DNA of 64,000 bases from a virus (taxonomy: Duplodnaviria > Caudoviricetes). Where the stretch lies: IMG/VR virus record IMGVR_UViG_2700989075_000001, positions 5,642 to 69,641 of that record, one strand, 5' to 3'. Position 1 is the stretch's first letter. Each line of letters opens with the position of its first letter. The translations under genes and the position numbers were made by a program. Positions 10,458-63,851 of the stretch are shown here, one piece after another. The notes under the pieces were generated by a model. It was not told the origin of the DNA, did no database searches, and was given only the letters and a program-made list of their open reading frames with translations.

Positions 10458-10478
10458 TTTGACTCCCTTACCTGCGGC

Positions 10479-10540
10479 GGCGGGGCGGTCCCGCCTTGCT
10501 GATGTGAACACACTAACCCGCCTTAGTCGGGTAAGTCAAG
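10479..10540 (-). promoter_or_regulatory. Repeated promoter-operator-hairpin cassette, copy A (core CCTTAGT)
   Basis: Minus strand reads TTGACT-N18-TAGTGT with an ACCCG-N7-CGGGT inverted repeat in the spacer, then a GGCGGG-N5-CCCGCC hairpin. Confidence 0.85.
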
Positions 10541-28718: not shown

Positions 28719-29467
28719 GCGACTGCGTAGACGAGACGCACCTGCAAGAGCTGGACGGCGTGATCAGCCCCCAGCCGTGGATGCAATGGCGGCATGTCGG
28801 CGGCGTGGAGGCCCCCAGCAAGACGGGCAACTACGGCGTCACGCTTACCAGCGGGGGCCTGGGCACGGTCGACGTGTTCGGCACGCTGGGCAGCCTGTTC
28901 GGCAGCCTGTTCAGCTTCATCCCGACCATGTTCGGCAAGACCTCGTTCCTGGCGGGGCTGCTGGAATCGGCCAGCGCGGGCGGCAATAAGAACGACCTGC
29001 TGCACAGTCTCCAGCGCAGCTGGACCAATAACACGCCCGTACCGCAGGACGTATATGGGCTCATCACGCGCGGCGGCGCACGGGTGAGCCTCCAGCCGCG
29101 CAGCCGGGGCGGGCTGGTGCTGCGCAGCGGATACGCCAAGCACGCCAGCGACCCCGGCCCGCTGGCCATCAGCAGCATGTTCGGCGTCGGCGCGGACCTA
29201 GGGCGCGGTGGGACGCTGAGCCTGGGCACCACGTTCGGCATCGCGGAGCAGCGGATGAACAGCTGCACGATTCCGCTGGCACCCGAGCGCACCGGCTGGC
29301 TGCGGCTGGCACCGGGTGAGACCATCACCGCCGCGCTGGAGCTGCGCTTCGTCAGTGAGTTCTGGGAGAACACCACCATCGACGGCGGCGACACCGGCAG
29401 CGAAAGCAGCTACACCACGGGCGCGACCCGTCTTGATCTGTTCGCGGTGCCGGTAATCTCAGGCTGA
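28715..29467 (+). CDS. Putative structural protein (paralogue 3 of 3)
   Basis: WTNNTPVPQDVYGLITR; GTGA coupling. Confidence 0.7.
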   Translation: MSDCVDETHLQELDGVISPQPWMQWRHVGGVEAPSKTGNYGVTLTSGGLGTVDVFGTLGSLFGSLFSFIPTMFGKTSFLAGLLESASAGGNKNDLLHSLQRSWTNNTPVPQDVYGLITRGGARVSLQPRSRGGLVLRSGYAKHASDPGPLAISSMFGVGADLGRGGTLSLGTTFGIAEQRMNSCTIPLAPERTGWLRLAPGETITAALELRFVSEFWENTTIDGGDTGSESSYTTGATRLDLFAVPVISG

Positions 29468-33362: not shown

Positions 33363-33382
33363 GATTACTCCTTGATCGCGGC

Positions 33383-33443
33383 GGCGGGGCTGTCCCGCCT
33401 GGCTGATGCGACCATACTAACCCGCCTTAGTCGGGTAAGTCAA
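33383..33443 (-). promoter_or_regulatory. Repeated promoter-operator-hairpin cassette, copy B (core CCTTAGT)
   Basis: TTGACT-N18-TAGTAT with the same operator and hairpin as copy A. Confidence 0.85.
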
Positions 33444-33467
33444 CAGCGGCATTGCTACCATCGCCCG

Positions 33468-35201
33468 GTGAGCTTCATCCGGTCGAAATTTGCCGCCCGC
33501 GCCCTGCTGACCGTCGACCAGTGGATCGCCATTTTCGTGGCGGTCGCGGATGAGCTGGACATGCCCGACAAGCGCGGCGCGGTGGTGTGCGCCGCCATGT
33601 GCGCCTTCCAGGAGGCCGGTGCCGATCTGAACGACGGCAACGGGCGGCAAATCTGGATCCCCGGCAACATGGCCGACCCCTGCTACGCCGACGACCCCGA
33701 CGCCTACCCGCACGACAGCGAAGGCAACGACGGGCAGTCCACCGGCCCGTTCCAGCAGCAGATGAACCAGCCGGGGAAAGCGCCCTGGGGCTGGGGCGGC
33801 AACTACGGCGATTGCAACGGCACCCGCAAGAGGATGGACCCGTGGGACAGCACGCGCATGTTCTTCGGCTGGCCGGGCAGCGGGCTGCGGGACAAGGGCT
33901 ACGACGCCAGCACCGCCCAGCGCGCCAACGACAGCATCCAGCGCGTACAGGGCAGCGGCGTGCCGCAGGCGTACGCCCAGTGGTGGGGCCTGGCGAACGC
34001 CGCCTATGACCGATACCTGGGCAACCCGATCCCGGCACCGCCCAGCCCCGGCGCGGGCAGCAGCGGCGCTCCGGCGCTGATACCGAACCCGGCCTGGCGC
34101 GGCGACCCGCTGTTCCTGCCGCAGCTGCTGCGGGCGTTTGGCGTCAGCGTGACCACCTACACCGACGCCGACGGCATCCGGTGGGACCAGCGCGGGCATG
34201 GCGACTTCGGGCGCATTTCGTGGGTGCTGTGGCACCACACCGGCAGCATCAACGAGACGGACAACGGCATCGCGCACCATCCGGCGCTGGGCCTGGCCGC
34301 AAACATGCTGATCCACCCCGATGGGCACGTGGTGCTCACCGGCAGCGGCATCGCCTGGCACGGCGGCATCGGGGTGTACCCCGGCATCCCAGAGGACGGC
34401 ATCAACCAGGTCAGCATTGGGATCGAGTGCAGCTACGGGCCGGACCGCGACGGCAACTACACGATCCCCTGGCCCGAGGCGCAGATGAACGCCATGATCG
34501 CGGTCGGCGGTGCGATCAGCTGGTTCCTGGGCGACACGCTGCCGCCGTCGCACCAGATCGCTCACAAGGAATGGGCCGGGCGCGATAACCCGCTCGGCAT
34601 CAACAAGCAGGGCAAGCCGGACCCCGGCAACCTGAACATGACGTGGTTCCGCGAGCAGATCGCGGCGCGCGCAGCTGCTGGCCCCACAACCGGAGGAGAC
34701 TGGATGTCCGACCCCGACGCCCTGACCATGCTCAGGGACATTCACCGCGAGACCGTGACGCAGAAGTCGCCCAGCCGGTCGTTCATGGCCGAGGACGGCA
34801 CGCTGATCGACAGCCCTCTGGGCATCGACTGGAACATCGACGGCAATGCCTGGACCCTGGTGCTGACCGAGGCGTACTGGAACGACACCCCGCTGGCCAT
34901 CAGCGTGGTCGAGGACATCGCCGCCAACGGCGTGCGGCAGTCCAGCTGGGCGGGGTCGGCCGACAAGGACAGCGAGGTCAAGTTCAACCAGTGGTTGCGG
35001 GACTTCGGCCAGGCGTACTGCCAGGGGCTGGTCCGGCGTAAGGCCCAGTGGAACGCGCTGGTCGCTGCGGTATCGGCCCTGGCTGCCGCCCAGGCGAACG
35101 CAACCGTCGCCGCCGAGGCAACCACCAAGGCAGCGCCCAAGAAGCGCGTACCGCGCAAGACAGCCGCGAAGAAGCCCGCCACGACCGGCGGCGCAGAATG
35201 A
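33468..35201 (+). CDS. lysA: Lysin A (endolysin): N-terminal lysozyme-like domain plus Zn-amidase
   Basis: Amidase_2 residues HHTG...AWHGG...SIGIE...HKEW...KPDPG. N-domain QEAG...STGPFQQ...WG...RMDP. Leaderless GTG 6 nt after TACCAT. Confidence 0.9.
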   Translation: MSFIRSKFAARALLTVDQWIAIFVAVADELDMPDKRGAVVCAAMCAFQEAGADLNDGNGRQIWIPGNMADPCYADDPDAYPHDSEGNDGQSTGPFQQQMNQPGKAPWGWGGNYGDCNGTRKRMDPWDSTRMFFGWPGSGLRDKGYDASTAQRANDSIQRVQGSGVPQAYAQWWGLANAAYDRYLGNPIPAPPSPGAGSSGAPALIPNPAWRGDPLFLPQLLRAFGVSVTTYTDADGIRWDQRGHGDFGRISWVLWHHTGSINETDNGIAHHPALGLAANMLIHPDGHVVLTGSGIAWHGGIGVYPGIPEDGINQVSIGIECSYGPDRDGNYTIPWPEAQMNAMIAVGGAISWFLGDTLPPSHQIAHKEWAGRDNPLGINKQGKPDPGNLNMTWFREQIAARAAAGPTTGGDWMSDPDALTMLRDIHRETVTQKSPSRSFMAEDGTLIDSPLGIDWNIDGNAWTLVLTEAYWNDTPLAISVVEDIAANGVRQSSWAGSADKDSEVKFNQWLRDFGQAYCQGLVRRKAQWNALVAAVSALAAAQANATVAAEATTKAAPKKRVPRKTAAKKPATTGGAE

Positions 35202-36532
35202 CCGCCCCGGCCCCGGCCTGGCACCCGCCCAACACGGTGGGCGATGTCGACCCGAACATCGTGCTGGCCAAGCAGAAGCTGGCCAAGTACAGCTACGGCA
35301 AGCCCGCCAACGACGGCACCCCGGTGTACACCGCCGAGTTCGGCGCGGCGCTGGCCGAGTTCCAGCGGCGGCGCAATGTCGAGATTGACCAGGGCAAGTA
35401 TCTGCCGCCGCGCATGACCGCCCTGGGCACCCTGGACTACAACACCAAGGTCCAGATGGAGATTGTGCCCCGCGCTGGCGGCGGCGCGAATCCGCCACCG
35501 GCCACCATCATCACCGACTGTCATTTCCTGTCCAGCCCCGGCAGCGGCGCGGACTGGTGGGTCGGCCCCAGCTTCGAGGTAGGGGAGTGGCTTAAGAACA
35601 ACGCGGGCGTCCGGCACTGGCCGCTCGGGTATCCCAAGGGCGGCTATCTGGGCCTGATGGGCGGCGACAGCGCCCAGAGCTACCTGGACACCATCGCGCT
35701 GGAGGGCGTGGAGCTGGAGCGGCGCATCCGCGAGGACATCCTGACGTTGTACGACATCACGCTGACCCCCGGCGAAGCCATCAGCATGGAGGACATCGAC
35801 CAGCTGCCCACCGGGTTCAAGATCATCCTGTCCGGCTACAGCCAGTCGGCCGACGGCATCATCCGCGCGGCTGAGCGGCTGTTCGGTGACGGCGGCGTGT
35901 TCGTGGCGCTGCGCCGCTTCGTCAAGGGCATCCTGGCGTTCGGCAACCCTGCCCGGCAGGGCGGTGCCACCCGGTACGGGCGCAGCCCGCGCGGCAAGGG
36001 AATCAGCGGGTACGTGGCCCCGAGCTGGCTGGCGGCGCTCATCATCGACGTGGTGACCGAGACGCCCACCGCGCCGGACTTCTACGCCTGCAATGTCAGC
36101 CCCATCGCCACGGCGGTCTACGAGGTCGTTATCCACGCCGAGACCGAACTGCCGTTCGTGTTGTACCTGGCCAAGCTGGTCATCCCCACCATCCTGAGCC
36201 TGGTCAGCGGCGGCATCTTCGGAGCGGGCGGCATCGGCGGGCAGCTGGGCAGCGCGGCCACGGTGCCGATCCTGGCGGGCCTCACCGGCATGAGCGGCGG
36301 GCAGCTGCTGCCGTTCGTCAACATGGCCCAGCAGGGCGACGATGCGCTGCTCCAGCCGTTGATCGCCGCGCTCACGCCTACGGGCTTGCTGCTGAGCCTG
36401 CCGCAGCTCATCGGGCTGTTGCTGGCGCTGCCCGGCATCCAGACGCACGGCGAATACCACCTGCCCAAGCAGGAGTTCGGCGGGCGCACGGGCATCCAGG
36501 TGGGAATCGACCTGATCAGGCCCCTGTTGTAA
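35198..36532 (+). CDS. lysB: Lysin B (mycolylarabinogalactan esterase)
   Basis: N-terminal PG-binding-like helices; cutinase-like SGYSQSA, FGNPAR, DFYA and a C-terminal H; follows lysA. Confidence 0.85.
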   Translation: MTAPAPAWHPPNTVGDVDPNIVLAKQKLAKYSYGKPANDGTPVYTAEFGAALAEFQRRRNVEIDQGKYLPPRMTALGTLDYNTKVQMEIVPRAGGGANPPPATIITDCHFLSSPGSGADWWVGPSFEVGEWLKNNAGVRHWPLGYPKGGYLGLMGGDSAQSYLDTIALEGVELERRIREDILTLYDITLTPGEAISMEDIDQLPTGFKIILSGYSQSADGIIRAAERLFGDGGVFVALRRFVKGILAFGNPARQGGATRYGRSPRGKGISGYVAPSWLAALIIDVVTETPTAPDFYACNVSPIATAVYEVVIHAETELPFVLYLAKLVIPTILSLVSGGIFGAGGIGGQLGSAATVPILAGLTGMSGGQLLPFVNMAQQGDDALLQPLIAALTPTGLLLSLPQLIGLLLALPGIQTHGEYHLPKQEFGGRTGIQVGIDLIRPLL

Positions 36533-36541
36533 CCTGCACAT

Positions 36542-36615
36542 AGCGGCTCTCGTGGTTGTGGGTCCAGCGGGCGAAGCCCCGACACCTGGGGAAGGTGCCG
36601 GGGCTTCGTTTCGTT
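36542..36615 (+). ncRNA. Candidate small RNA (or lysB 3' UTR) antisense to start-associated motifs
   Basis: TAACCT -10 at 36530-36535, seed TCGTGGTTGTGGGTC at 36550-36564, followed by an intrinsic terminator. Confidence 0.4.
36572..36615. terminator. Intrinsic terminator between convergent lysB and replication block
   Basis: CGAAGCCCCGACACC / GGTGCCGGGGCTTCG stem followed by TTTCGTT. Confidence 0.85.
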
Positions 36616-36625
36616 CAGCCGGGTG

Positions 36626-37234
36626 TCAGCTGATGGACTTGCGCCACTCCTGGTAGAGCGCCTTGTCCTCGTCGGACCCGGCAGCCAGGATGTACGGCGC
36701 GGACTGGTTGGGCTTCTTGTTGCCCTTCACGATCCGGCCCAGCAGCCAGGCGGTGCCCTTGTCGAGCGCCCGCTTACCCTCGCGGACCAGCGCCTTGTTG
36801 AAGATCATCACGTCATCCAACCGCTCGCCCACCTCGTAGGGCTCGCAGGTCTCCACCTCGCCGTCGCGGTTGAGGAAGGCGTAGCCCTCATCGGTGGCAA
36901 CGGTGTTGTTGGCGTTCGGCGTGCCGGGCTGCGGCAGCGTCAGCGGGATGATGTCGGCGCGAATGAACTCCTGCTCCTCGTTCTGCTTGGACACGCTGGT
37001 GCTCATGCTGCCGTGCTCGGTCGGGTGCATGAGGACGAGCTGGCCCAGGAAGAACGCGGGCTTGTAGCCGCTGATGCCGGTGGGGTCACTGGCAGCGAAC
37101 GGGTCGCCCTTGCCCAGGCTGGTTTCCTCACCGACGTTGGCCACGTCGTCAGGGCCGGGAAGCGGTGCCTTGGCGGCAGCGGCGGGCTTGGCGGCGGTGG
37201 CGGTGCCACCCTTCTTGTCAAACGGGCTGGGCAT
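36626..37234 (-). CDS. Hypothetical protein, possibly ssDNA-binding
   Basis: AAGGAG RBS at ATG 37234; follows the nuclease and helicase genes. Function inferred from position only. Confidence 0.6.
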   Translation of the reverse strand: MPSPFDKKGGTATAAKPAAAAKAPLPGPDDVANVGEETSLGKGDPFAASDPTGISGYKPAFFLGQLVLMHPTEHGSMSTSVSKQNEEQEFIRADIIPLTLPQPGTPNANNTVATDEGYAFLNRDGEVETCEPYEVGERLDDVMIFNKALVREGKRALDKGTAWLLGRIVKGNKKPNQSAPYILAAGSDEDKALYQEWRKSIS

Positions 37235-37271
37235 TGTGGTTGCTCCTTGGTGTTGGTGTGGTGATGGTTGG

Positions 37272-38621
37272 TTAAAACAGTTCGGCGATGGTTTCGGCGA
37301 ACTCCCCCAGGGCGTCGTCCCAGACATCCTGGTAGGTCTCATAGACAGCCTGGCCCTCTTCCAGGCTGGCAATCTCGCTCAGCGCCAGGCGTGCGGTGGC
37401 GTAGCGCACCGCCTCCTTGCTGGGCATCGGTACGGCGTGCTGCGGTACCAGCTTCTCGGCCTCCTTGCGGCGTCGGCGGGTGTCCAGGCTGGCCACCATG
37501 GTCTCGGCACCCCAGGTGAGGTCGATCGTGATGGCAGCCGCCTTCTCGGGCTGGTTGCTGGGCACGTGCAGCAGGATGGCGAAGTCGGTACGAATCTCGG
37601 GCATGGGCTCCCAGCTCTTGCCGTCAATGGCCAGAATCTTGGTGGCCCAGCCGTACACGCCGCCCACCTGCACCCCGAACGGCAGCCAGCTGTACTCCAG
37701 GGACTTGCTGGTTTTCACGTCGCCCAGCACCAGCTCCCCAGTGGTGACCAGCTTGAAAATCCGGTCGATCTTGCCCGCCACCGGCTCCTCGCCCCGGTCG
37801 TTGAGCACGGTGCGCTCGACGTACTCGGGCAGCGCCACGATGCCCCGGTGGGCCATCACCTTGCGGGCATAGTGCACGTGTGGCCGGACCACCTCGGGCA
37901 CCTGGTGCAGCAGCACCAGCCCGCAGTCCAGGGCCTCCAGCCAGGCGTGGGCGCATTCGCCCAGCTCGCGGGCGTCGGCCCCGCCCATGCAATTGTCGAT
38001 GGTCTCCAGCACGGCGTCCACGCGGGTGACCTTGGGCTGGTTCATGGCCTCGTCCAGCAGGCCGATCAGATCGGCGGCGGTGACCTTCTCGGGGATGCCG
38101 TCGTCGTACACCACGGTGGCCGGGTCCATGCGCAGCAGCGACACGATGCGCTTGACGGTCTCGCGGGTGCCCCACTTGTTCAGCCCGTAAGTGTCGTCCA
38201 GTGTCTTGGCGATGGTGGTGGCGCGCGGGTAGCCCGTGGGCCTGCCAGTGCTGGGGCTCGGCAGCTGGTACCAGCCCCAGCCGTTGAACTTGCTCTCGGC
38301 ACGCGGCGGGGCAGGCGGAAGCGGGTAGTGCATCCACTGCGTCACGCGCTCCGGCACGATCACCTCGCCGTCGGCGTCAATCTCTGTCGGGGCTGTACGG
38401 GCCATAGCGGGCTTCTCCTTGGTTGATGGGGTGGTTGTGTCGGCCGGGGCCTGTTCGTGCGTCTGTGCGGCAGCCAGCGGGGCAGGCGCGTCGACTGCGC
38501 GGTAGTCGGGATGGGCCTGGGCTAGGTCGCTGGTCCACCCGTCCCCGGTCTCGCCCCGGTACCAGGTGGTGCCGTTGGTGTCCGTGCGTGCCGGGTACTG
38601 CACCGCCATGCTGGCCATCAC
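37272..38621 (-). CDS. PD-(D/E)XK (RecB/Cas4-like) exonuclease
   Basis: G..AHAWLE, AGKIDRI, LVLGDVKT. Strong alternative start at 38405. Confidence 0.8.
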   Translation of the reverse strand: MMASMAVQYPARTDTNGTTWYRGETGDGWTSDLAQAHPDYRAVDAPAPLAAAQTHEQAPADTTTPSTKEKPAMARTAPTEIDADGEVIVPERVTQWMHYPLPPAPPRAESKFNGWGWYQLPSPSTGRPTGYPRATTIAKTLDDTYGLNKWGTRETVKRIVSLLRMDPATVVYDDGIPEKVTAADLIGLLDEAMNQPKVTRVDAVLETIDNCMGGADARELGECAHAWLEALDCGLVLLHQVPEVVRPHVHYARKVMAHRGIVALPEYVERTVLNDRGEEPVAGKIDRIFKLVTTGELVLGDVKTSKSLEYSWLPFGVQVGGVYGWATKILAIDGKSWEPMPEIRTDFAILLHVPSNQPEKAAAITIDLTWGAETMVASLDTRRRRKEAEKLVPQHAVPMPSKEAVRYATARLALSEIASLEEGQAVYETYQDVWDDALGEFAETIAELF

Positions 38622-40333: not shown

Positions 40334-40430
40334 GTGTTGGCTTTCGTGTGGTTGTGGTGCTGGTGAAGTGTGGTGTTGGTGGTAGTCGCCCGGCCCCAGG
40401 TGGCAGGCCCTGGAGCCGCGCGACGTACCT

Positions 40431-41705: not shown

Positions 41706-41737
41706 GGTGCGGGTACTCCTTCGTGGTTGTGTTGCGG

Positions 41738-44539: not shown

Positions 44540-44571
44540 GAACAGGGCCTTTCGTGGTTGTGGTTGTGCGG

Positions 44572-45264
44572 TTAGACGTAGCGGCCGGGCTTGCTGGCGA
44601 TGCCGCCCCCGAGTGCCAGGTAGCCCACCCCGTCGGTCCAGCTGTCGGCGTGGTTGGGCGTCTTGATCAGCCGGGCCACCTTCACCAGGGCCATGCAGAT
44701 CGCCACCTGCTCGGCGGTGACTTCGTGGCCGAACACCACCGCCCAGAGCGCACCGGTCTCGGTGAAATTCTGCTCGGCATCACCGTAGACGGCGTTGCGG
44801 TCGTTGTTGACCAGATCGGCGGCGGTGGCGCAGATGGCCCCGGCGCGCTGGCCGGTGGTCTGGTTCTCAGCGGCCATCTTGACCAGAGCGTCGTGGCGGG
44901 CCTTGAGCCTGCCCGCCTTCACCTCCGGCGGCAGCTCGCCGCACAGGTCCAGATACTGCTCGCGGGCCGACAACCCTGTCAGCGGCGCGATGTCCATTTC
45001 GATAGGCCCGCCCTGGTGGCAGTGGCAGCCCAGCGAGTGCGCCTCGTTGGGGCAGGCGGCGGTCTTGGGCTTGTCGTCGGGCACGGCGGTCTCCTCGGTG
45101 GTTGTGGTCGTGGTACGGGGCAGCTTAGCGGCGGCAATCTCGCGCTCGAATGCGCCGCAGTCGCACCCGGTGCCAGCGGGTGTGAGGAACGAACAGAACG
45201 GGCTGTGCAGCACCCGGCCGTCGACAATGCGGCCGGGGATGTCGCCCTTCACGCGCGGGTCCAT
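44572..45264 (-). CDS. Protein with C-terminal DUF6378-like (nucleotide pyrophosphohydrolase-like) domain
   Basis: DRNAVYGDAEQNF...MALVKVARL...DSWTDGVGY. Strong internal start GTG 45084. Confidence 0.65.
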   Translation of the reverse strand: MDPRVKGDIPGRIVDGRVLHSPFCSFLTPAGTGCDCGAFEREIAAAKLPRTTTTTTEETAVPDDKPKTAACPNEAHSLGCHCHQGGPIEMDIAPLTGLSAREQYLDLCGELPPEVKAGRLKARHDALVKMAAENQTTGQRAGAICATAADLVNNDRNAVYGDAEQNFTETGALWAVVFGHEVTAEQVAICMALVKVARLIKTPNHADSWTDGVGYLALGGGIASKPGRYV

Positions 45265-49006: not shown

Positions 49007-49039
49007 GGCGGTTCTCCTTCGTGGTTGTGGTGGGGCGGA

Positions 49040-49734: not shown

Positions 49735-50058
49735 CTACTTGGGTTTTCGGCCGGTCTGCGCCCACTGCTGGCCACGCTGCATCTGGTACAGCAGGGACAG
49801 CGACGAGGACATCGGCGCGGGCAGGGCACGCAGCAGCACGGTCCACTCGCTGTACTCGATCACGCCGTCGCCGCTGCCCGCCGGGCGACGCATCAGTTCC
49901 TGGCACAGCGCCACGAACGGGCCGAAGTGGTTCGGATCGACGCGCTGCGTCACGACGTACCCGAGGGCGAACGCCAGCGCCGCCGTCGGGGCTTCGGACA
50001 GTGGGGTGCCGCCGGGGCCGAACGTCTGCGCCGGGACGGCGGGGAGGTTGTGGGTCAC
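49735..50058 (-). CDS. Hypothetical protein (probably leaderless)
   Basis: GTG 6 nt downstream of TACTGT, in a degenerate cassette at 50065-50087. Confidence 0.6.
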   Translation of the reverse strand: MTHNLPAVPAQTFGPGGTPLSEAPTAALAFALGYVVTQRVDPNHFGPFVALCQELMRRPAGSGDGVIEYSEWTVLLRALPAPMSSSLSLLYQMQRGQQWAQTGRKPK

Positions 50059-50441: not shown

Positions 50442-51218
50442 ATGACCACAACCACACGACGCAAGACCACGAAGAAGGCGGCACCCGTGAAGGGTGACGT
50501 GCGACCGGAAACACTGGCGCAGTTCAACCGCGAGCTGGTCGAGTACGGCGGGTACGACCCCGACTTCGACGGGCTGGTGGAGAAGCTGTACACCACGCGG
50601 GAGGCCATCAAGCAGCTGGCCAAGGCGCGGCAAAACCTGTTTGAGCACGTGAAAGGCTACTACCGGGGCACCGACGTGGCCGTGCCCGGTACGGAGTTCG
50701 TGGTCCGGCAGACAGCAGCCGGGGAGCCCACCACGTACCGGACGGTGAGCAGTGCCGACGCCAAGAAGGCCGACCCGGCTGCCTGGCGGCGGGCGCAGGT
50801 GCTGACCGGGTTCGTGCAGGTGAAGGCCCCGGCGGCGGTGGCTGCGGCGGTGCCGGAGGAAGCGGTGCCGGAGCTGTGCAACCTGGACAAGGGCGTGGGG
50901 CTGCGGGAGGCGGTGCTGGCCTACAAGGAGGCTCCGGCCTGGCAGCGGCTGAAAGCGCTGCGGGAGGCCGAACAGGAAACGCTCGGTCGGCTGGAGAAGC
51001 TGGCTGCGGAGTTCGGCTGGGACGGCGACCTGAAGGTGTTCGCGGATGGTTGGTCGGTGCAGCTCAAGCGCCAGCAGTACAGCAGCGAGGCGCTGGCGGC
51101 GGTGGCCCCCGACGTGTTCGAGAAGCTGGCCGTGGTGAAGGTCAAGCAGGCTCCGGCCAGGGTGTACGTCGGCAAGCCCGGTGACACCGACGGGGCCGAG
51201 GACGAGTACGCGGAATAG
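50442..51218 (+). CDS. Hypothetical protein (probably leaderless)
   Basis: ATG 7 nt after TAGTGT; coding-like sequence with two similar halves. Confidence 0.7.
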   Translation: MTTTTRRKTTKKAAPVKGDVRPETLAQFNRELVEYGGYDPDFDGLVEKLYTTREAIKQLAKARQNLFEHVKGYYRGTDVAVPGTEFVVRQTAAGEPTTYRTVSSADAKKADPAAWRRAQVLTGFVQVKAPAAVAAAVPEEAVPELCNLDKGVGLREAVLAYKEAPAWQRLKALREAEQETLGRLEKLAAEFGWDGDLKVFADGWSVQLKRQQYSSEALAAVAPDVFEKLAVVKVKQAPARVYVGKPGDTDGAEDEYAE

Positions 51219-52569: not shown

Positions 52570-52784
52570 CCACCAGGGCACCGATCATGGAGCTGACCGA
52601 CGCCCACGCCGACGGCACCATCTACGTGGACGGCGAAGGCGACATCTGGCAGCCATGCCCGTTCGGCTGGATGGTCACCCGGCGCACGCCGTTCAGCATC
52701 GACAGCAGCCTGGGCGTACCGGCGGCAATGTTCGGCCCGTACGTTCCGGTGCTGCCGCCTCCTGGGGGACAATCGCCAGCATGA
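52566..52784 (+). CDS. Hypothetical protein
   Basis: ATGA-coupled; VDGEGDIWQ...FGPY motif. Confidence 0.6.
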   Translation: MTTRAPIMELTDAHADGTIYVDGEGDIWQPCPFGWMVTRRTPFSIDSSLGVPAAMFGPYVPVLPPPGGQSPA

Positions 52785-53368
52785 CGGTGAGCGACGACGA
52801 CATCAGCGCCATGCTGGACGAGGAGCTGCTGGCCCGGCGCACCAAGGTGATGTTCCTCAAGAACGCGGGTGCCACCTGGAAGGCCATTAGCGCGGAGGTG
52901 GGCGTCAGCATCGCCACGTGCCGCAAGGACTACTCCGTGGTGTGCCGCGACATCAACAACGAGCAGCCCGCCGACGTGGTGGCCCGGCATCGCGCGGTCA
53001 TTTTCGACATCCAGCGGGCCAACTACCCGGCCATGATGCGCGGCGACAAGGACGCGGCGGCTACCATCCTGCGGGCGCTGGACCGCGAGGCCAAGCTGCT
53101 CGGGCTCGACGCACCCACGCGGATCCTGGCCGGGGTCAGCGACGTGGAGTTCGCCAACGAGGCTGCCCGGCTCATCGAACGCATCACCGCACTGGATCCC
53201 ACAACCATGAAGGAGCTGAGCCGTGCCACCAACAGCGCGCCCCGCATCATCGACGCAGAACCCGCTGACGTTCCCGCTGACCAGGCGGGCCATCCGCAGG
53301 CTGCGCCGATGCCTGGGGCAGCGCCCGGCACTGACGACAGTGACGACGACTGGAGCAACATCGCCTGA
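52781..53368 (+). CDS. HTH protein resembling actinophage terminase small subunits
   Basis: AGATWKAISAEVGVS HTH; GDKDAA...REAKLLGLDAP. Confidence 0.6.
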   Translation: MTVSDDDISAMLDEELLARRTKVMFLKNAGATWKAISAEVGVSIATCRKDYSVVCRDINNEQPADVVARHRAVIFDIQRANYPAMMRGDKDAAATILRALDREAKLLGLDAPTRILAGVSDVEFANEAARLIERITALDPTTMKELSRATNSAPRIIDAEPADVPADQAGHPQAAPMPGAAPGTDDSDDDWSNIA

Positions 53369-56180: not shown

Positions 56181-58124
56181 TTGGTCACCACACTGGGCGG
56201 GTCGAACACCAGCCGCCAGCGCTCGCCTGTCCACAGCAGCACCCACCAGTGCCGCAGGCGGTGCCGGTCACCGTCGAACAGGCGCTCCACGTCGTCGCGC
56301 GTGGGCACGCCGCTGCCGGTCATACGCCGCCGACCACCTGGCCGCACCGGGCGCAGACCTGGGCGGGCCTGCCGCCGCGCACCAGCACAATGCTGGTGAT
56401 GTGCGGGCACGGCGTGCGCGGTGGCCTCATGCGCGCTGGGCCTCCTCATCGCGCTCCCAGTCGTCCAGGATGGCGTTCAGCCGGTTGATCGGCACGGTCA
56501 GCGCGCTGCCGTATTCGGCGCACAGTTCGCGGATGCGGGCCAGCGCCAGGGCCTCGGGGCTCAGGTTGTGGGTCACAGGTCGAACTCCTCCTCATACATC
56601 GGCAGGTACTCGCTGGCCGGGCGCGGCTGCCCGGCGGCAACGTTCGCGTCGAACGCGGCCAGCAGGTGCTCCAGGTAACGCACGTGCGGGCTCGGCTCCA
56701 GTCCGTTGTCCGGCGCGTCGACAATGCGCGCGATGAACTTGCGGCGCTGGCGGGCCACGTCCATCCCGTGGCTGACGGTCTTCACGGGCACTCCTGCCCT
56801 GGTCGGTGGATCAGGTGGCATTGCGCGCAGATAACCTCACGCTCGCCCAGGGTGAAGTCCCTCATGTCGTAGGCGGGGCCATCGCCCAGGATGCGCGGCC
56901 AGTGCTCGGGCTGGTCGGGCACCGGCCCACAGTCGATGCCGGGCAGGCAGCTGGCGCACCCGTCCACGGCGCTATGAGTGCGGTGGCCGCATCGGCGGCA
57001 TGGCACGCGGGTGTCGAACGTCATGGCCTTTCGTCCCATCCGTTGCGCTTGCCGCTGGTCAGGCAGGGCTGGCCCAGCGTGTTGGTGTGCTCGGCGAAGC
57101 AGCGCTTGCCCTCGTCGTCGCGGGTAATGTCCACGTCCTTGGTGCAGACGGGGCACCAGTAGGTGCCCTCGCCGCTCACCGCGTCCTCACTACGGCTGTG
57201 ATGGTGCTGCCCGGCCGGAAATGCTCACGCCAGCCGTGGAACTCCAGCAGCGCGCCGATGTCGTCCAGCACCACGAAGCGGTCGCTGGCCAGGCCGACGC
57301 GCACGTGGCCCACCAGGGGCCGGTCCAGCGTGGTTTCGGCCAGGGTCACGTGGTCGGTATGGCAGGCACGCCACGGTGCCCACCAGGGCCGGTCGCCCCA
57401 CGCGGCCACCAGCGCCACCATGGTCGTGCCGGGGCTTACCTCGGTGGCCGGGTCCACGATGGGCGGCGCGGTGGCCAGCACCTCGGCGTGCTGCCGGGCG
57501 CGGCGATGCAGCAACAGCACTCGCAGCACGAACGCCAGCGCCACGCCCAGGGCGGCGTCCCGCCAGCTGAACGGCCAGCCGATCCACTGGTCGATAACCC
57601 AGCTGGCCAGCAGGCACACCGGCATCACGATGAACCACCAGCCCAGCCAGTCCCTCATGGTCGCCACGGCTCGGCCCCCATTCCGGTGCTGACGTTATGC
57701 GTGAAGCACCAGCCATACCGCCAGCGGCAGTCCGGTCCGCACGGCAGCAGGCCCACGGCGCGCATCACCTCGGCCAGCTCCTGAGTCGTCATGTTGGCGT
57801 CCATCACTTGCCCTCCAGCTTGGCGCGCAGCGCGGCCAGTTCCTCGTCGTTCATCAACGGTGACACCGGCTGGTCCAGGAACACCGGAAGCTCCACGTTG
57901 TGGCTGTTGCACCACACCATCGGCTCAGGCCGGTAAGTCAGCTCCATGTCGCAGCCGGTGCGCAGGTGCATGATCGGCTCGGGGTTCACAGTGCTGACCA
58001 GGCCCTCGGCCAGGCGGGTATCCGGCTTAGGGCTCACGGCGTCGGCAATGCGCTCCAGTGCCAGCACCGCACGCTCGGCGAACTTGATGGCATCACGGGT
58101 CGGGCCGGGCAGCAGGTTAACCAT
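56177..58124 (-). other. Run of small coupled hypothetical genes (56177-56323, 56320-56430, 56427-56576, 56573-56785, 56782-57024, 57021-57179, 57176-57667, 57655-57804, 57804-58124)
   Basis: Mostly 4-bp stop/start overlaps; several have CxxC motifs and one has 2 TM segments. Confidence 0.6.
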
Positions 58125-59960: not shown

Positions 59961-59990
59961 GGATGGTTCCTCCTTGGTGGTTGTGGTGGT

Positions 59991-60215: not shown

Positions 60216-60253
60216 GGTGGTTCCTCCTTGGTTGTGGTGGTTGGGGTACTGCG

Positions 60254-61436: not shown

Positions 61437-61460
61437 GGTGTTGCTCCTTTGTTGGTGGGT

Positions 61461-61521
61461 GGCGGGGCGGTCCCGCCTGCTGATGTGAACACAGTAACCC
61501 GACTAAGGCGGGTAAGTCAAG
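61461..61521 (-). promoter_or_regulatory. Cassette copy E (core ACTAAGG)
   Basis: TTGACT-N18-TACTGT plus operator and hairpin. Confidence 0.85.
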
Positions 61522-62945: not shown

Positions 62946-62967
62946 GGGTGGCTCCTTGGGTCGCGGA

Positions 62968-63029
62968 GGCGGGGCTGTCCCGCCTGGCTGATGTGAACAC
63001 ACTAACCCGACTAAGGCGGGTAAGTCAAG
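62968..63029 (-). promoter_or_regulatory. Cassette copy F (core ACTAAGG)
   Basis: TTGACT-N18-TAGTGT plus operator and hairpin. Confidence 0.85.
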
Positions 63030-63764: not shown

Positions 63765-63790
63765 TGTGGTGCTCCTTGCGGTTGTGCGTA

Positions 63791-63851
63791 GCGGGGCGGT
63801 CCCGCCGTGCTGATGTATGAACACTAACCCGCCTTAGTCGGGTAAGTCAAG
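63791..63851 (-). promoter_or_regulatory. Cassette copy G (core CCTTAGT)
   Basis: TTGACT-N18-TAGTGT plus operator and hairpin. Confidence 0.85.

Follow-up and report, generated by a model that had tools for sequence, protein, structure and literature searches.

Several bacteriophages make small, terminator-ended RNAs that block the translation of phage genes near the ribosome binding site (RBS), among them sar of P22, OOP of lambda and c4 of P1. The RNAs sar and OOP are encoded in cis opposite their target, and c4 acts on sites in its own transcript. Here we describe a candidate RNA from a stretch of 64,000 nucleotides, bases 5642-69641 of the 69,641-base virus record IMGVR_UViG_2700989075_000001 (the window in the following; positions are those of the window unless another record is named). 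The element occupies 36530-36615, directly behind the lysis gene lysB. With somewhat better than even confidence we regard it as a conserved gene for a + strand small RNA (sRNA) of about 73 nt, or as a functional 3' untranslated region (3'UTR) of the lysis mRNA, which would pair with a C/A-rich, enhancer-like motif in the leaders of other phage genes in the way GcvB does. Unlike sar and OOP, the predicted RNA is clear of every annotated leftward gene, the end of the gp45 homologue being at 36626, and its complementary sites are located 1.8-24 kb from the RNA locus.

According to the available text of PMC3879156, GcvB pairs immediately upstream of the Shine-Dalgarno sequence (SD) and thereby silences translation-enhancing ACA motifs. 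The present element resembles GcvB at the sequence level only: in both, a single-stranded region rich in G and U can pair with C/A-rich sequences that immediately precede the SD in many mRNAs, and the leader motif, like the GcvB targets, contains ACA or ACAAC, here at -24 to -13. The two are not homologous. An Rfam search of the whole window gave 0 matches at the gathering score, and between 36450 and 36700 GcvB was absent even at E<=10, a level at which 10 weak sub-threshold hairpin matches appeared (the best was Pxr with 24 bits against a gathering score of 80; sar scored 19.6 bits against 43, on the minus strand and over the hairpin only). The candidate also differs from GcvB in that it is encoded by a lytic phage and that the proposed targets are the phage's own genes. 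To our knowledge the host has no Hfq, and because of this the pairing would have to work Hfq-free.

The genomic distribution of the motif recalls the start-associated sequences of cluster K mycobacteriophages (SAS, with ESAS), short asymmetric repeats which occur in one orientation, just upstream of starts and at non-structural genes only (PMC3203893). As described in the available part of that paper, SAS has a 13-bp consensus containing AGGAG, is located 3-7 bp before start codons and is conserved across subclusters in front of unrelated genes, with one oppositely oriented copy in each of Anaya, Adephagia, Angelica and CrimD (K1). Its function is given there as unknown and thought to be translational, and the partners are left open as 'RNA or protein'. 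The motif of the window likewise has a prevailing orientation (8/9 copies on the minus strand), is found at none of the structural starts and has six copies at -22 to -26. It differs from SAS in sequence, the window containing 0 matches to the SAS consensus at <=2 mismatches, and in position, since it lies 5' of the SD whereas SAS contains the SD. Moreover, a complementary RNA gene is proposed here, while none is proposed for SAS in the available part of PMC3203893. Phage- and prophage-encoded sRNAs, and a 3'UTR-derived sRNA that acts on phage mRNA, have already been published. With these the element shares its place at an mRNA 3' end, an intrinsic terminator in common with that mRNA, a possible internal promoter, a conserved seed and multiple targets. 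As far as the accessible accounts go, the published cases come from Gram-negative hosts and mostly target host genes or one phage gene; in contrast, dispersed phage early and replication leaders share one response element here. A term search in the accessible text of a 2025 review of phage-derived sRNAs found 0 occurrences of mycobacteria. Judged by its features, the candidate is a member of the general class of terminator-ended, possibly 3'UTR-derived phage sRNAs; it is outside the Rfam families and outside cluster K SAS, and appears to combine GcvB-like working with SAS-like genomic logic.

In a megablast search 194 mycobacteriophage records were matched by 36000-37400. The best identities were those of ChrisnMich and JAMaL (93.4% each) and Nigel (92.7%), all classified as Coopervirus (Bclasvirinae), and by this similarity the window is assigned to a Coopervirus-type mycobacteriophage, which we take to be cluster B4. 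We mapped 88 start codons in the window by tblastn with the proteins of ChrisnMich. The element sits in a 93-nt gap between two convergent units, lysB on the + strand and the gp45 homologue on the minus strand; a Pfam search of the neighbouring proteins gave nothing useful.

From the lysB stop codon to the convergent terminator the + strand presents, in this order, the hexamer TAACCT, 15 nt, the seed core CGTGGTTGTGG, a strong hairpin and a T-rich tail (Table 1). An earlier note, made from the letters of the window alone, had pointed out that the lysB stop overlaps TAACCT and that a non-coding stretch follows, with a seed in the loop of a GGCUC/GGGUC stem and then a strong terminator; sequence and coordinates were found to be as it described. 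The RNA would begin 6-8 nt past the hexamer, near 36542-36543, and end in the T-rich tail at about 36612-36615. Its predicted fold (-40.2 kcal/mol) consists of a 5' stem-loop (stem-loop 1), in which TCGTGGTTGTGGGTC spans 36550-36564, and the terminator. The same sequence doubles as the 3'UTR of the lysA-lysB mRNA. The hairpin is followed by TTTCGTT, as is expected of an intrinsic terminator, and shows compensatory changes both between and within lineages; its minus-strand side runs into GCCCGCTGG and not into a T-rich tail.

The stretch appears to be non-coding. A minus-strand start is not conserved, as set out below, and a + strand peptide from the 34-codon open reading frame (ORF) at 36552-36656 was rejected: the ORF has no SD, and its frame and length shift between homologues through indels of 1-2 nt past the hairpin in B4 and a stop after 14 codons in Acadian.

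Eleven homologues were aligned, including six genera besides Coopervirus, and all 11 possess the same module: TANNNT, a variable spacer of 16-38 nt, a GTGGTTGTGG-like core in a stem-loop, about 11-17 nt, and a lineage-specific long hairpin with a T/G-rich tail. The carriers from other genera are Acadian, Indlovu, Chah (B1), Hosp, LilMcDreamy and Rosebush (B2), to which Rinkes, a record without genus, is added; the core has lineage-specific variants in all of these. Across 13 B4-type phages there is hardly any variation between TAACCT and the hairpin, in contrast to the flanks. GCGGCTCTCGTGGTTG is unchanged throughout this set, and the seed core differs by a single T>C in Bane2. The module is retained where its surroundings are not. 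In Adawi the 3' end of lysB is unrelated and homology resumes at GTAACCTG; in Vincenzo, with 81.6% identity over the 1.4-kb query, the module is kept with TAATCT as the hexamer; and in Rosebush the upstream gene is a holin gene and not lysB, yet the module is still there. phi1_186018 has a 20-nt insertion between the hexamer and the GCGGCTC of stem-loop 1 (L012, 535-555). Other insertions flank the module and never interrupt it: about 90 bp past the terminator in Hangman (L011, 614-705) and a further 60 bp or so past the terminator in phi1_186018 (L012, 634-690).

Both stems are preserved by pairing rather than by sequence. The terminator stem is lineage-specific yet always paired, with a T/G-rich tail in 11/11, and the hairpin arms of B4-type phages differ through compensatory changes. 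Hartsy and Chah are distinguished solely by one double change at the base of the stem, from G-C to A-U, and the differences between Tres and Rosebush are confined to the hairpin loop and the last bases of the tail. In stem-loop 1, 85.7% of 77 cells (11 sequences) are paired, against 76.0 +/- 2.7 in shuffles, of which 0/500 reach the observed value, and 27-60% when the partners are slid against each other; in three pairs both partners are changed. Unprompted, RNAalifold arrives at this stem and at the terminator, with a compensatory change in 14/20 pairs overall. The core is located in the loop or the 3' arm of this covarying stem-loop in all 11 homologues. A covariance model (R1) built from the 11 sequences has one + strand match per genome, the window being matched at 36530-36615 with 95 bits, and it scores 89-94 bits in four phages outside the training set; it detects no second copy in the window or in ChrisnMich. 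Conservation of the -10 hexamer, the seed and the terminator in related phages had been named in the earlier note as a check on its proposal, and each of these is conserved or covaries in the 11 homologues.

The module was matched in 293 B1-type, 39 B2-type and 47 B4/B5-type records (38 of the latter covering >=80% of the query), counts that include duplicate GenBank and RefSeq entries. No annotated feature lay under the B1- or B2-type module among the 16 entries listed. The B4-type query starts 13 nt inside lysB, and the features listed under it are the end of lysB and one auto-annotated hypothetical ORF in phi1_186018. Phaedrus (B3) has just a hairpin after lysB, in a 69-nt gap, and R1 found no match in its right 32 kb, the region searched.

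The complement of the seed is the C/A-rich word CCACAACCACGA. Outside the locus 13 sites match the C/A core exactly over >=9 nt, and nine of them are within -45 to +25 of a mapped start, six at -22 to -26, directly 5' of an AAGGAG-type SD, and three at +2 to +4. Two further core sites lie inside annotated genes, yet an SD and a start codon come next. One of these codons, GTG 45084, is likely to be an alternative or the true start of the gp52 homologue, and ATG 38405 is likely an internal start of the exonuclease gene, to judge from the context in both cases. The former context (motif, SD and start) is shared by ChrisnMich, the latter by both Chah and ChrisnMich. Each target coordinate proposed in the earlier note corresponds to an exact match of >=9 nt with the complement.

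The leader copies fill short spacers within operons, the stop codon of the upstream gene often being only 10-20 nt before the motif, and for that reason they are parts of mRNA leaders and not promoters. Around the SD these leaders consist almost only of A and C. By analogy, the leader motif most likely keeps the RBS unstructured and enhances translation. The earlier note had offered as its own alternative that the motif is no more than an unstructured A/C-rich enhancer, the intergenic copy belonging to a minus-strand ATG at 36541. The first half probably also applies to the leader copies, and composition alone does not account for exact repeats of 11-12 nt among leaders; the second half did not survive comparison with the homologues.

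The combination of motif, SD and start codon also marks probable starts that the annotations miss (9184, 15463 and 18527 in L022; 33770 and 14784 in L025). In Chah it is a GTG (VLGS...), and not the annotated ATG, that corresponds to the primase start MLGS... found in other lineages. The gp59 and gp78 homologues, two small, unrelated-looking leftward genes, have identical first 14 nt, GTGACCCACAACCT (50046-50058 and 56564-56576).

Table 1. The element behind lysB, its flanking genes and the sites complementary to its seed (window coordinates)
Feature	Position	Strand	Remarks
lysB	35198-36532	+	tblastn mapping; stop codon TAA 36530-36532
-10-like hexamer TAACCT	36530-36535	+	fits TANNNT; first three bases are the lysB stop codon
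Predicted non-coding RNA, about 71-74 nt	36542-36615	+	fold and covariance model; ends inferred
Stem-loop 1	36545-36564	+	arms GGCTC (36545-36549) and GGGTC (36560-36564), loop TCGTGGTTGT displaying the seed; fold and covariation
Seed core CGTGGTTGTGG	36551-36561	+	complement CCACAACCACG; conserved among homologues
Terminator hairpin	36572-36608	+	15 positions per arm, one A/C mismatch, loop TGGGGAA
T-rich tail TTTCGTT	36609-36615	+	+ strand only
gp45 homologue, function unknown	37234-36626	-	tblastn mapping; next gene after lysB
Site inside exonuclease gene	38431-38439	-	9-nt match; CACAACCAC, 10 nt, AAGGAG, 9 nt, ATG 38405
Helicase (gp47 homologue) leader	40348-40357	-	10-nt match; CCACAACCAC at -24 of ATG 40333
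gp50 homologue leader	41721-41731	-	11-nt match; CACAACCACGA, then AGGAG, ATG 41705
Primase/polymerase (gp51 homologue) leader	44552-44563	-	12-nt match; CCACAACCACGA at -24, then AAGG, ATG 44539
Site inside annotated gp52 homologue	45098-45107	-	10-nt match; CCACAACCAC, GAGGAG, 6 nt, GTG 45084
gp56 homologue leader	49019-49030	-	12-nt match; CCACAACCACGA, then AGGAG, ATG 49006
gp59 homologue, just past start 50058	50046-50056	-	11-nt match at +2 of start codon; GTG-ACCCACAACC
gp60 homologue (rightward), ATG 50442	50446-50455	+	10-nt match at +4; codes Thr-Thr-Thr-Thr
gp78 homologue, just past start 56576	56564-56574	-	11-nt match at +2 of start codon; GTG-ACCCACAACC
gp91 homologue leader	59977-59986	-	10-nt match; CCACAACCAC, then CAAGGAGG, ATG 59960
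gp92 homologue leader	60229-60237	-	9-nt match; CCACAACCA, then AGGAGG, ATG 60215

Complementarity to several mRNAs at functional sites exceeded chance expectation. With <=1 mismatch ACAACCACGA had 9 matches, 8 of them on the minus strand, against 3.3 +/- 1.6 in shuffles (0/100 reach 9). A contiguous helix of >=10 Watson-Crick pairs with the 29-nt 5' part of the RNA was possible at 9/88 start regions, as compared with 500 shufflings of this part, which averaged 2.3 and reached 8 at most. As an internal control we took the flanks of the 29-mer outside the core: their 15 matches of >=9 nt were scattered in coding sequence, with 1 near a start. When start regions were cofolded with the RNA and the self-folding was subtracted, 10/90 reached a free energy difference (ddG) of <= -20 kcal/mol, whereas 45 seed-shuffled RNAs averaged 2.1 and did not exceed 7. 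At -8 and -10 the score did not separate the RNA from its shuffles, with 60 and 52 of the 90 regions passing and the shuffles reaching much the same numbers. RNAduplex was discarded as a discriminator because the 29-nt part gives -29 to -37 kcal/mol for almost every start region. Among the 88 mapped starts none of the structural (rightward, left-arm) ones had the motif or a helix of >=10 bp, and the statement of the earlier note that structural gene starts lack such matches was thus upheld in both the contiguous-helix and the exact-match scan.

The seed differs between lineages, and so do the leaders. In the B4 window, where the seed is UCGUGGUUGUGG, the minus strand has CCACAACCAC 6 times and CCAACAACCAC 0 times, CACAACCACGA 4 times and CACAACCACA 2 times. 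The seed of Chah (B1) has one extra U, and the minus-strand counts are 0 for CCACAACCAC and 7 for CCAACAACCAC. In Rosebush (B2) U replaces C before GUGG, and CACAACCACA occurs 4 times and CACAACCACGA 0 times on the minus strand. Phaedrus (B3), without a seed, has minus-strand counts of 0 for all longer variants; ACAACCAC was counted 2 times, and 0/62 leaders match any of the three seeds. Matches of >=9 nt were found in 5 Chah leaders with the phage's own seed and in 4 and 2 with the foreign seeds. In Hosp (n=66) they were found in 3 leaders with its own seed and in 0 with either the B4 or the B1 seed; the primase leader of Hosp carries CCACCACAACC, which fits the Hosp seed. A lineage-specific motif is likewise present in the primase leader of Acadian, Rosebush and Chah, in the latter before an unannotated GTG. 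Minus-strand copies other than the intergenic one are followed by an SD and a start in Chah (6/6), Rosebush (6/6), ChrisnMich (9/9 rows) and Acadian (6/7 rows), and in Acadian and Chah there are matches of 12-15 nt which end in CGAAG or CGAA and reach the first bases of the SD. Covariation of seed and targets had been proposed in the earlier note as a check; the two do change together across lineages, and both are missing in Phaedrus. This shows that seed and leader motif are functionally coupled. The rightward lysA leader of Acadian also contains ACAACCAC, followed by GAGGAG, 7 nt and GTG (L033, 4011-4034, + strand), so that the lysis mRNA of this phage would combine a target-like 5' site with a 3' seed.

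Three features point to the + strand as the one transcribed: the TANNNT hexamer, stem-loop 1 with its dependence on G.U pairs, and the T-rich tail. Of the 66 paired cells of stem-loop 1, 26 are G.U, which on the other strand become A.C; for this reason the stem exists only in a + strand RNA, and about 40/77 cells would pair in a minus-strand version. TANNNT is the mycobacterial type of -10 element. In the window it occurs at 127 of 128,000 positions (0.1%), and it precedes 9/88 mapped starts by 6-7 nt, in comparison with 12/4311 other ATG or GTG codons. This spacing is the pattern of leaderless mRNAs, and the phage seems to use TANNNT for leaderless genes, lysA included. The starts concerned are 11319, 13304, 27469, 30194, 33468, 50058 (minus strand), 50442, 53951 and 54997, several of which visibly lack an SD; among the genes are lysA (TACCAT), the tape-measure gene (TAGCCT) and the divergent pair gp59/gp60. 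In front of the element, TANNNT is found 16-38 nt upstream of the GGTTGT core in 11/11 homologues. A hexamer at a suitable distance in all of them is unlikely to be due to chance, and in four it is separate from the stop codon, being located 2 nt (Acadian), 3 nt (Chah), 20 nt (Rosebush) and 44 nt (Indlovu) downstream. The earlier note had likened TAACCT to the -10 elements of other genes. This is borne out to the extent that TANNNT is associated with starts; a sigma-70 scan found nothing. TAACCT itself was rejected as a promoter class of its own, as it is too rare: besides 1 TAATCT there are 7 sites, and only two of them all precede a gene, namely 49677 (minus strand), 60 nt before the gp58 homologue, and the TAATCT at 29454, 42 nt before the gp35 homologue.

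A possible mode of action can be outlined. The RNA would arise by transcription from a TANNNT-type -10 of its own, through processing of the lysA-lysB 3'UTR, or by both routes, and would end at the lysB terminator. Stem-loop 1 would present the G/U-rich seed UCGUGGUUGUGG in or beside its loop, and the seed could form 9-12 contiguous Watson-Crick pairs with CCACAACCACGA at -24 to -13, that is 5' of the SD and partly into it. Pairing of this kind might mask the leader enhancer, so that fewer 30S subunits are loaded and translation falls; the duplex may be cleaved as well. The regulon would comprise leftward replication and early genes, namely those for primase/polymerase and helicase, the internal start of the exonuclease gene and several small genes, and a single RNA would thus control a dispersed set of phage genes much as GcvB silences ACA enhancers. 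We lean towards repression rather than protection or activation, on the strength of that analogy. The position after the lysis genes suggests late accumulation, yet a -10 of the host type might be active at any stage. What we infer for this RNA is that it is transcribed, when this happens, that it acts in trans and that it represses; in the earlier proposal of a trans-acting late sRNA, the discrete + strand RNA gene or 3'UTR element is the part that stands as the best reading of the comparative data.

A wider proposal, which we put forward only tentatively, is that most cluster B phages carry an RNA regulon: one Hfq-independent sRNA by the lysis cassette would read the C/A-rich enhancer and switch off or tune the genes as a block, with seed and response element co-evolving lineage by lineage. 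Next to nothing has been established on how gene expression is controlled in cluster B, which ranks among the largest mycobacteriophage groups, and a full-text literature search returned no transcriptome or regulatory RNA for these phages. Neither the RNA nor the motif was described in the full texts searched, a coverage outside which most subscription journals and supplements fall. If the candidate is real, it would be a phage-encoded multi-target sRNA in an actinobacterial host that lacks Hfq, and a start-associated leader motif would thereby acquire a function. Under the wider proposal, further start-associated repeats of actinobacteriophages that lack an explanation, for example SAS of cluster K with its single oppositely oriented copy, might be response elements of phage RNAs too. 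The candidate is concrete and cheap to test, being a single conserved RNA, unannotated in the records examined, with a defined seed and set of leaders. The motif is also of use in flagging missed true or alternative starts, as in the Chah primase gene, the exonuclease gene and the gp52 homologue, and the pair of leader and seed could become a portable translational switch for mycobacterial genetics.

A number of observations weigh against an sRNA that acts on these leaders. The hexamer overlaps the stop codon in 7/11 homologues, no -35 element is conserved among them, and the sigma-70 consensus scan, which requires a -35, found 0 promoters in 35800-37400. Stem-loop 1 has a shifted register in two homologues, Rinkes and Rosebush, and takes another form in Hosp and Chah, and exposure of the seed is moderate, with a mean unpaired probability of 0.28-0.60. 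Hybridisation energies are high throughout this G+C-rich genome; the cofold excess is clear only at <= -20 kcal/mol, and at -18 kcal/mol it is weak, 6/45 shuffles reaching the observed count. In the leaders of the B4 window (n=88) a Hosp-type seed has 5 matches, nearly as many as the window's own seed with 6. Because pairing spans -24 to -13 and merely touches the SD, a blocking effect is suggested by analogy. A search of sequencing runs listed no RNA run with the phage; the few rows that might be RNA were wastewater runs held as contigs, with shares of 0.10-0.15. Finally, intergenic and leader copies share one DNA strand, and the co-variation consequently does not discriminate between an RNA and a protein partner: lineage-matched variation is equally expected of a repeat recognised by a protein, and the pointers to the + strand are limited to the hexamer, the G.U-dependent stem and the tail.

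This last point leads to the explanation that the C/A motif is recognised by an RNA- or DNA-binding protein, of phage or host, which acts at many starts in the fashion of RegA of T4, the intergenic copy being a decoy, a titration site or an orphan and no RNA of the + strand having a function. It would account for all copies, the intergenic one included, being on one DNA strand, and for the shared lineage-specific variants, as expected from co-evolution with a binding protein; the cluster K sequences were likewise left as sites for 'either RNA or protein' in the available text of PMC3203893. We nevertheless consider it unlikely, if the one to be taken most seriously. It leaves unexplained the conserved, rare TANNNT upstream on the + strand, the stem around the motif that depends on G.U pairs and fails on the minus strand, and the fact that the orphan site is always found past the end of the leftward operon, with the hexamer on one side and a terminator of the + strand on the other. 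Nor is there an SD or start codon after the intergenic copy in 5/12 homologues, and minus-strand transcription of the site would need read-through of the hairpin. Alternatively, the element could be a cis-acting part of the 3' end of the lysis mRNA, for example a stabilising pair of stem-loops or an accessory of the terminator, and the complementarity to leaders a by-product of low complexity, G/U against C/A. It does stand in a 3'UTR and share the terminator of the mRNA, covariation in hairpins is expected of any structured 3' end, and the leaders of this G+C-rich phage are generally C/A-rich. Composition-matched shuffled seeds, however, match far fewer leaders (0/500 and 0/45 reach the observed counts), exact identities of 11-15 nt and the matched extra base in B1 go beyond composition alone, and neither does the joint absence of seed and leader motif in Phaedrus, which still has a terminator, follow from composition; we hold the by-product explanation to be slightly less probable again than a protein site.

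The logic could also be reversed, the C/A motifs of abundant early mRNAs pairing with the lysis-mRNA 3'UTR and holding it down, or exposing it to cleavage, until early transcription fades, so that the element would time lysis. The element always ends the lysis cassette, with lysB or, in Rosebush, the holin gene before it, many copies of the motif face one seed, and the lysA leader of Acadian itself has ACAACCAC before its SD. Anything that closes the rightward transcription unit, however, would be found in this position, a conserved -10-like hexamer of its own would be superfluous, and we know of no precedent; we hold a timer of this kind to be quite improbable. It is hardly credible that the intergenic copy is the leader, or a relic of the leader, of a leftward gene starting at ATG 36541. 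It is true that, 12 nt past the core, the B4-type phages have an ATG (GTG in Adawi) which opens a long ORF antisense to lysB. But five of the 12 homologues (Acadian, Indlovu, LilMcDreamy, Rinkes and Rosebush) have no ATG, GTG or TTG past the core, and in the others position and ORF length vary, the start being 29-31 nt away in Chah, Hosp and phi1_186018 and the length ranging from 17 to at least 500 codons, with 51 in Vincenzo. There is GAGAGCC instead of an AGGAG-type SD, long antisense ORFs are expected at such G+C, and a relic would not persist across genera. An RNA of the + strand which pairs with the leaders therefore remains the reading we prefer.

Further sequence elements were noticed near starts. 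A conserved word, TCGGGTAAGTCAAC (with variants), stands about 11-20 nt before the TANNNT of lysA (33423-33467, + strand), and Hosp has a word of this type before three rightward genes (L023, upstream of the starts 3561, 22831 and 35871); it is possibly a phage-specific promoter or the site of a regulator. A second start-associated element is a repeated G+C-rich stem-loop of the GGCGGGAC..CCCGCC type located directly before the SD. In the window it is found at about 10458-10502, 33363-33407, 61437-61481, 62946-62990 and 63765-63809, all on the minus strand, before the homologues of gp18, gp42, gp93, gp98 and gp100. Many small genes of the right arm have it in front of them in Chah, Hosp and Rosebush too, and even in Phaedrus.

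One annotation deserves a comment. A product named 'Rnase E' in ChrisnMich, Hosp, Acadian and Rosebush has its homologue in the window at 52781-53368 (+ strand). The encoded protein has no Pfam RNase E domain; its sole Pfam match is a winged-helix domain below threshold (18.9 bits, cut-off 21.9), and the name looks unsupported.

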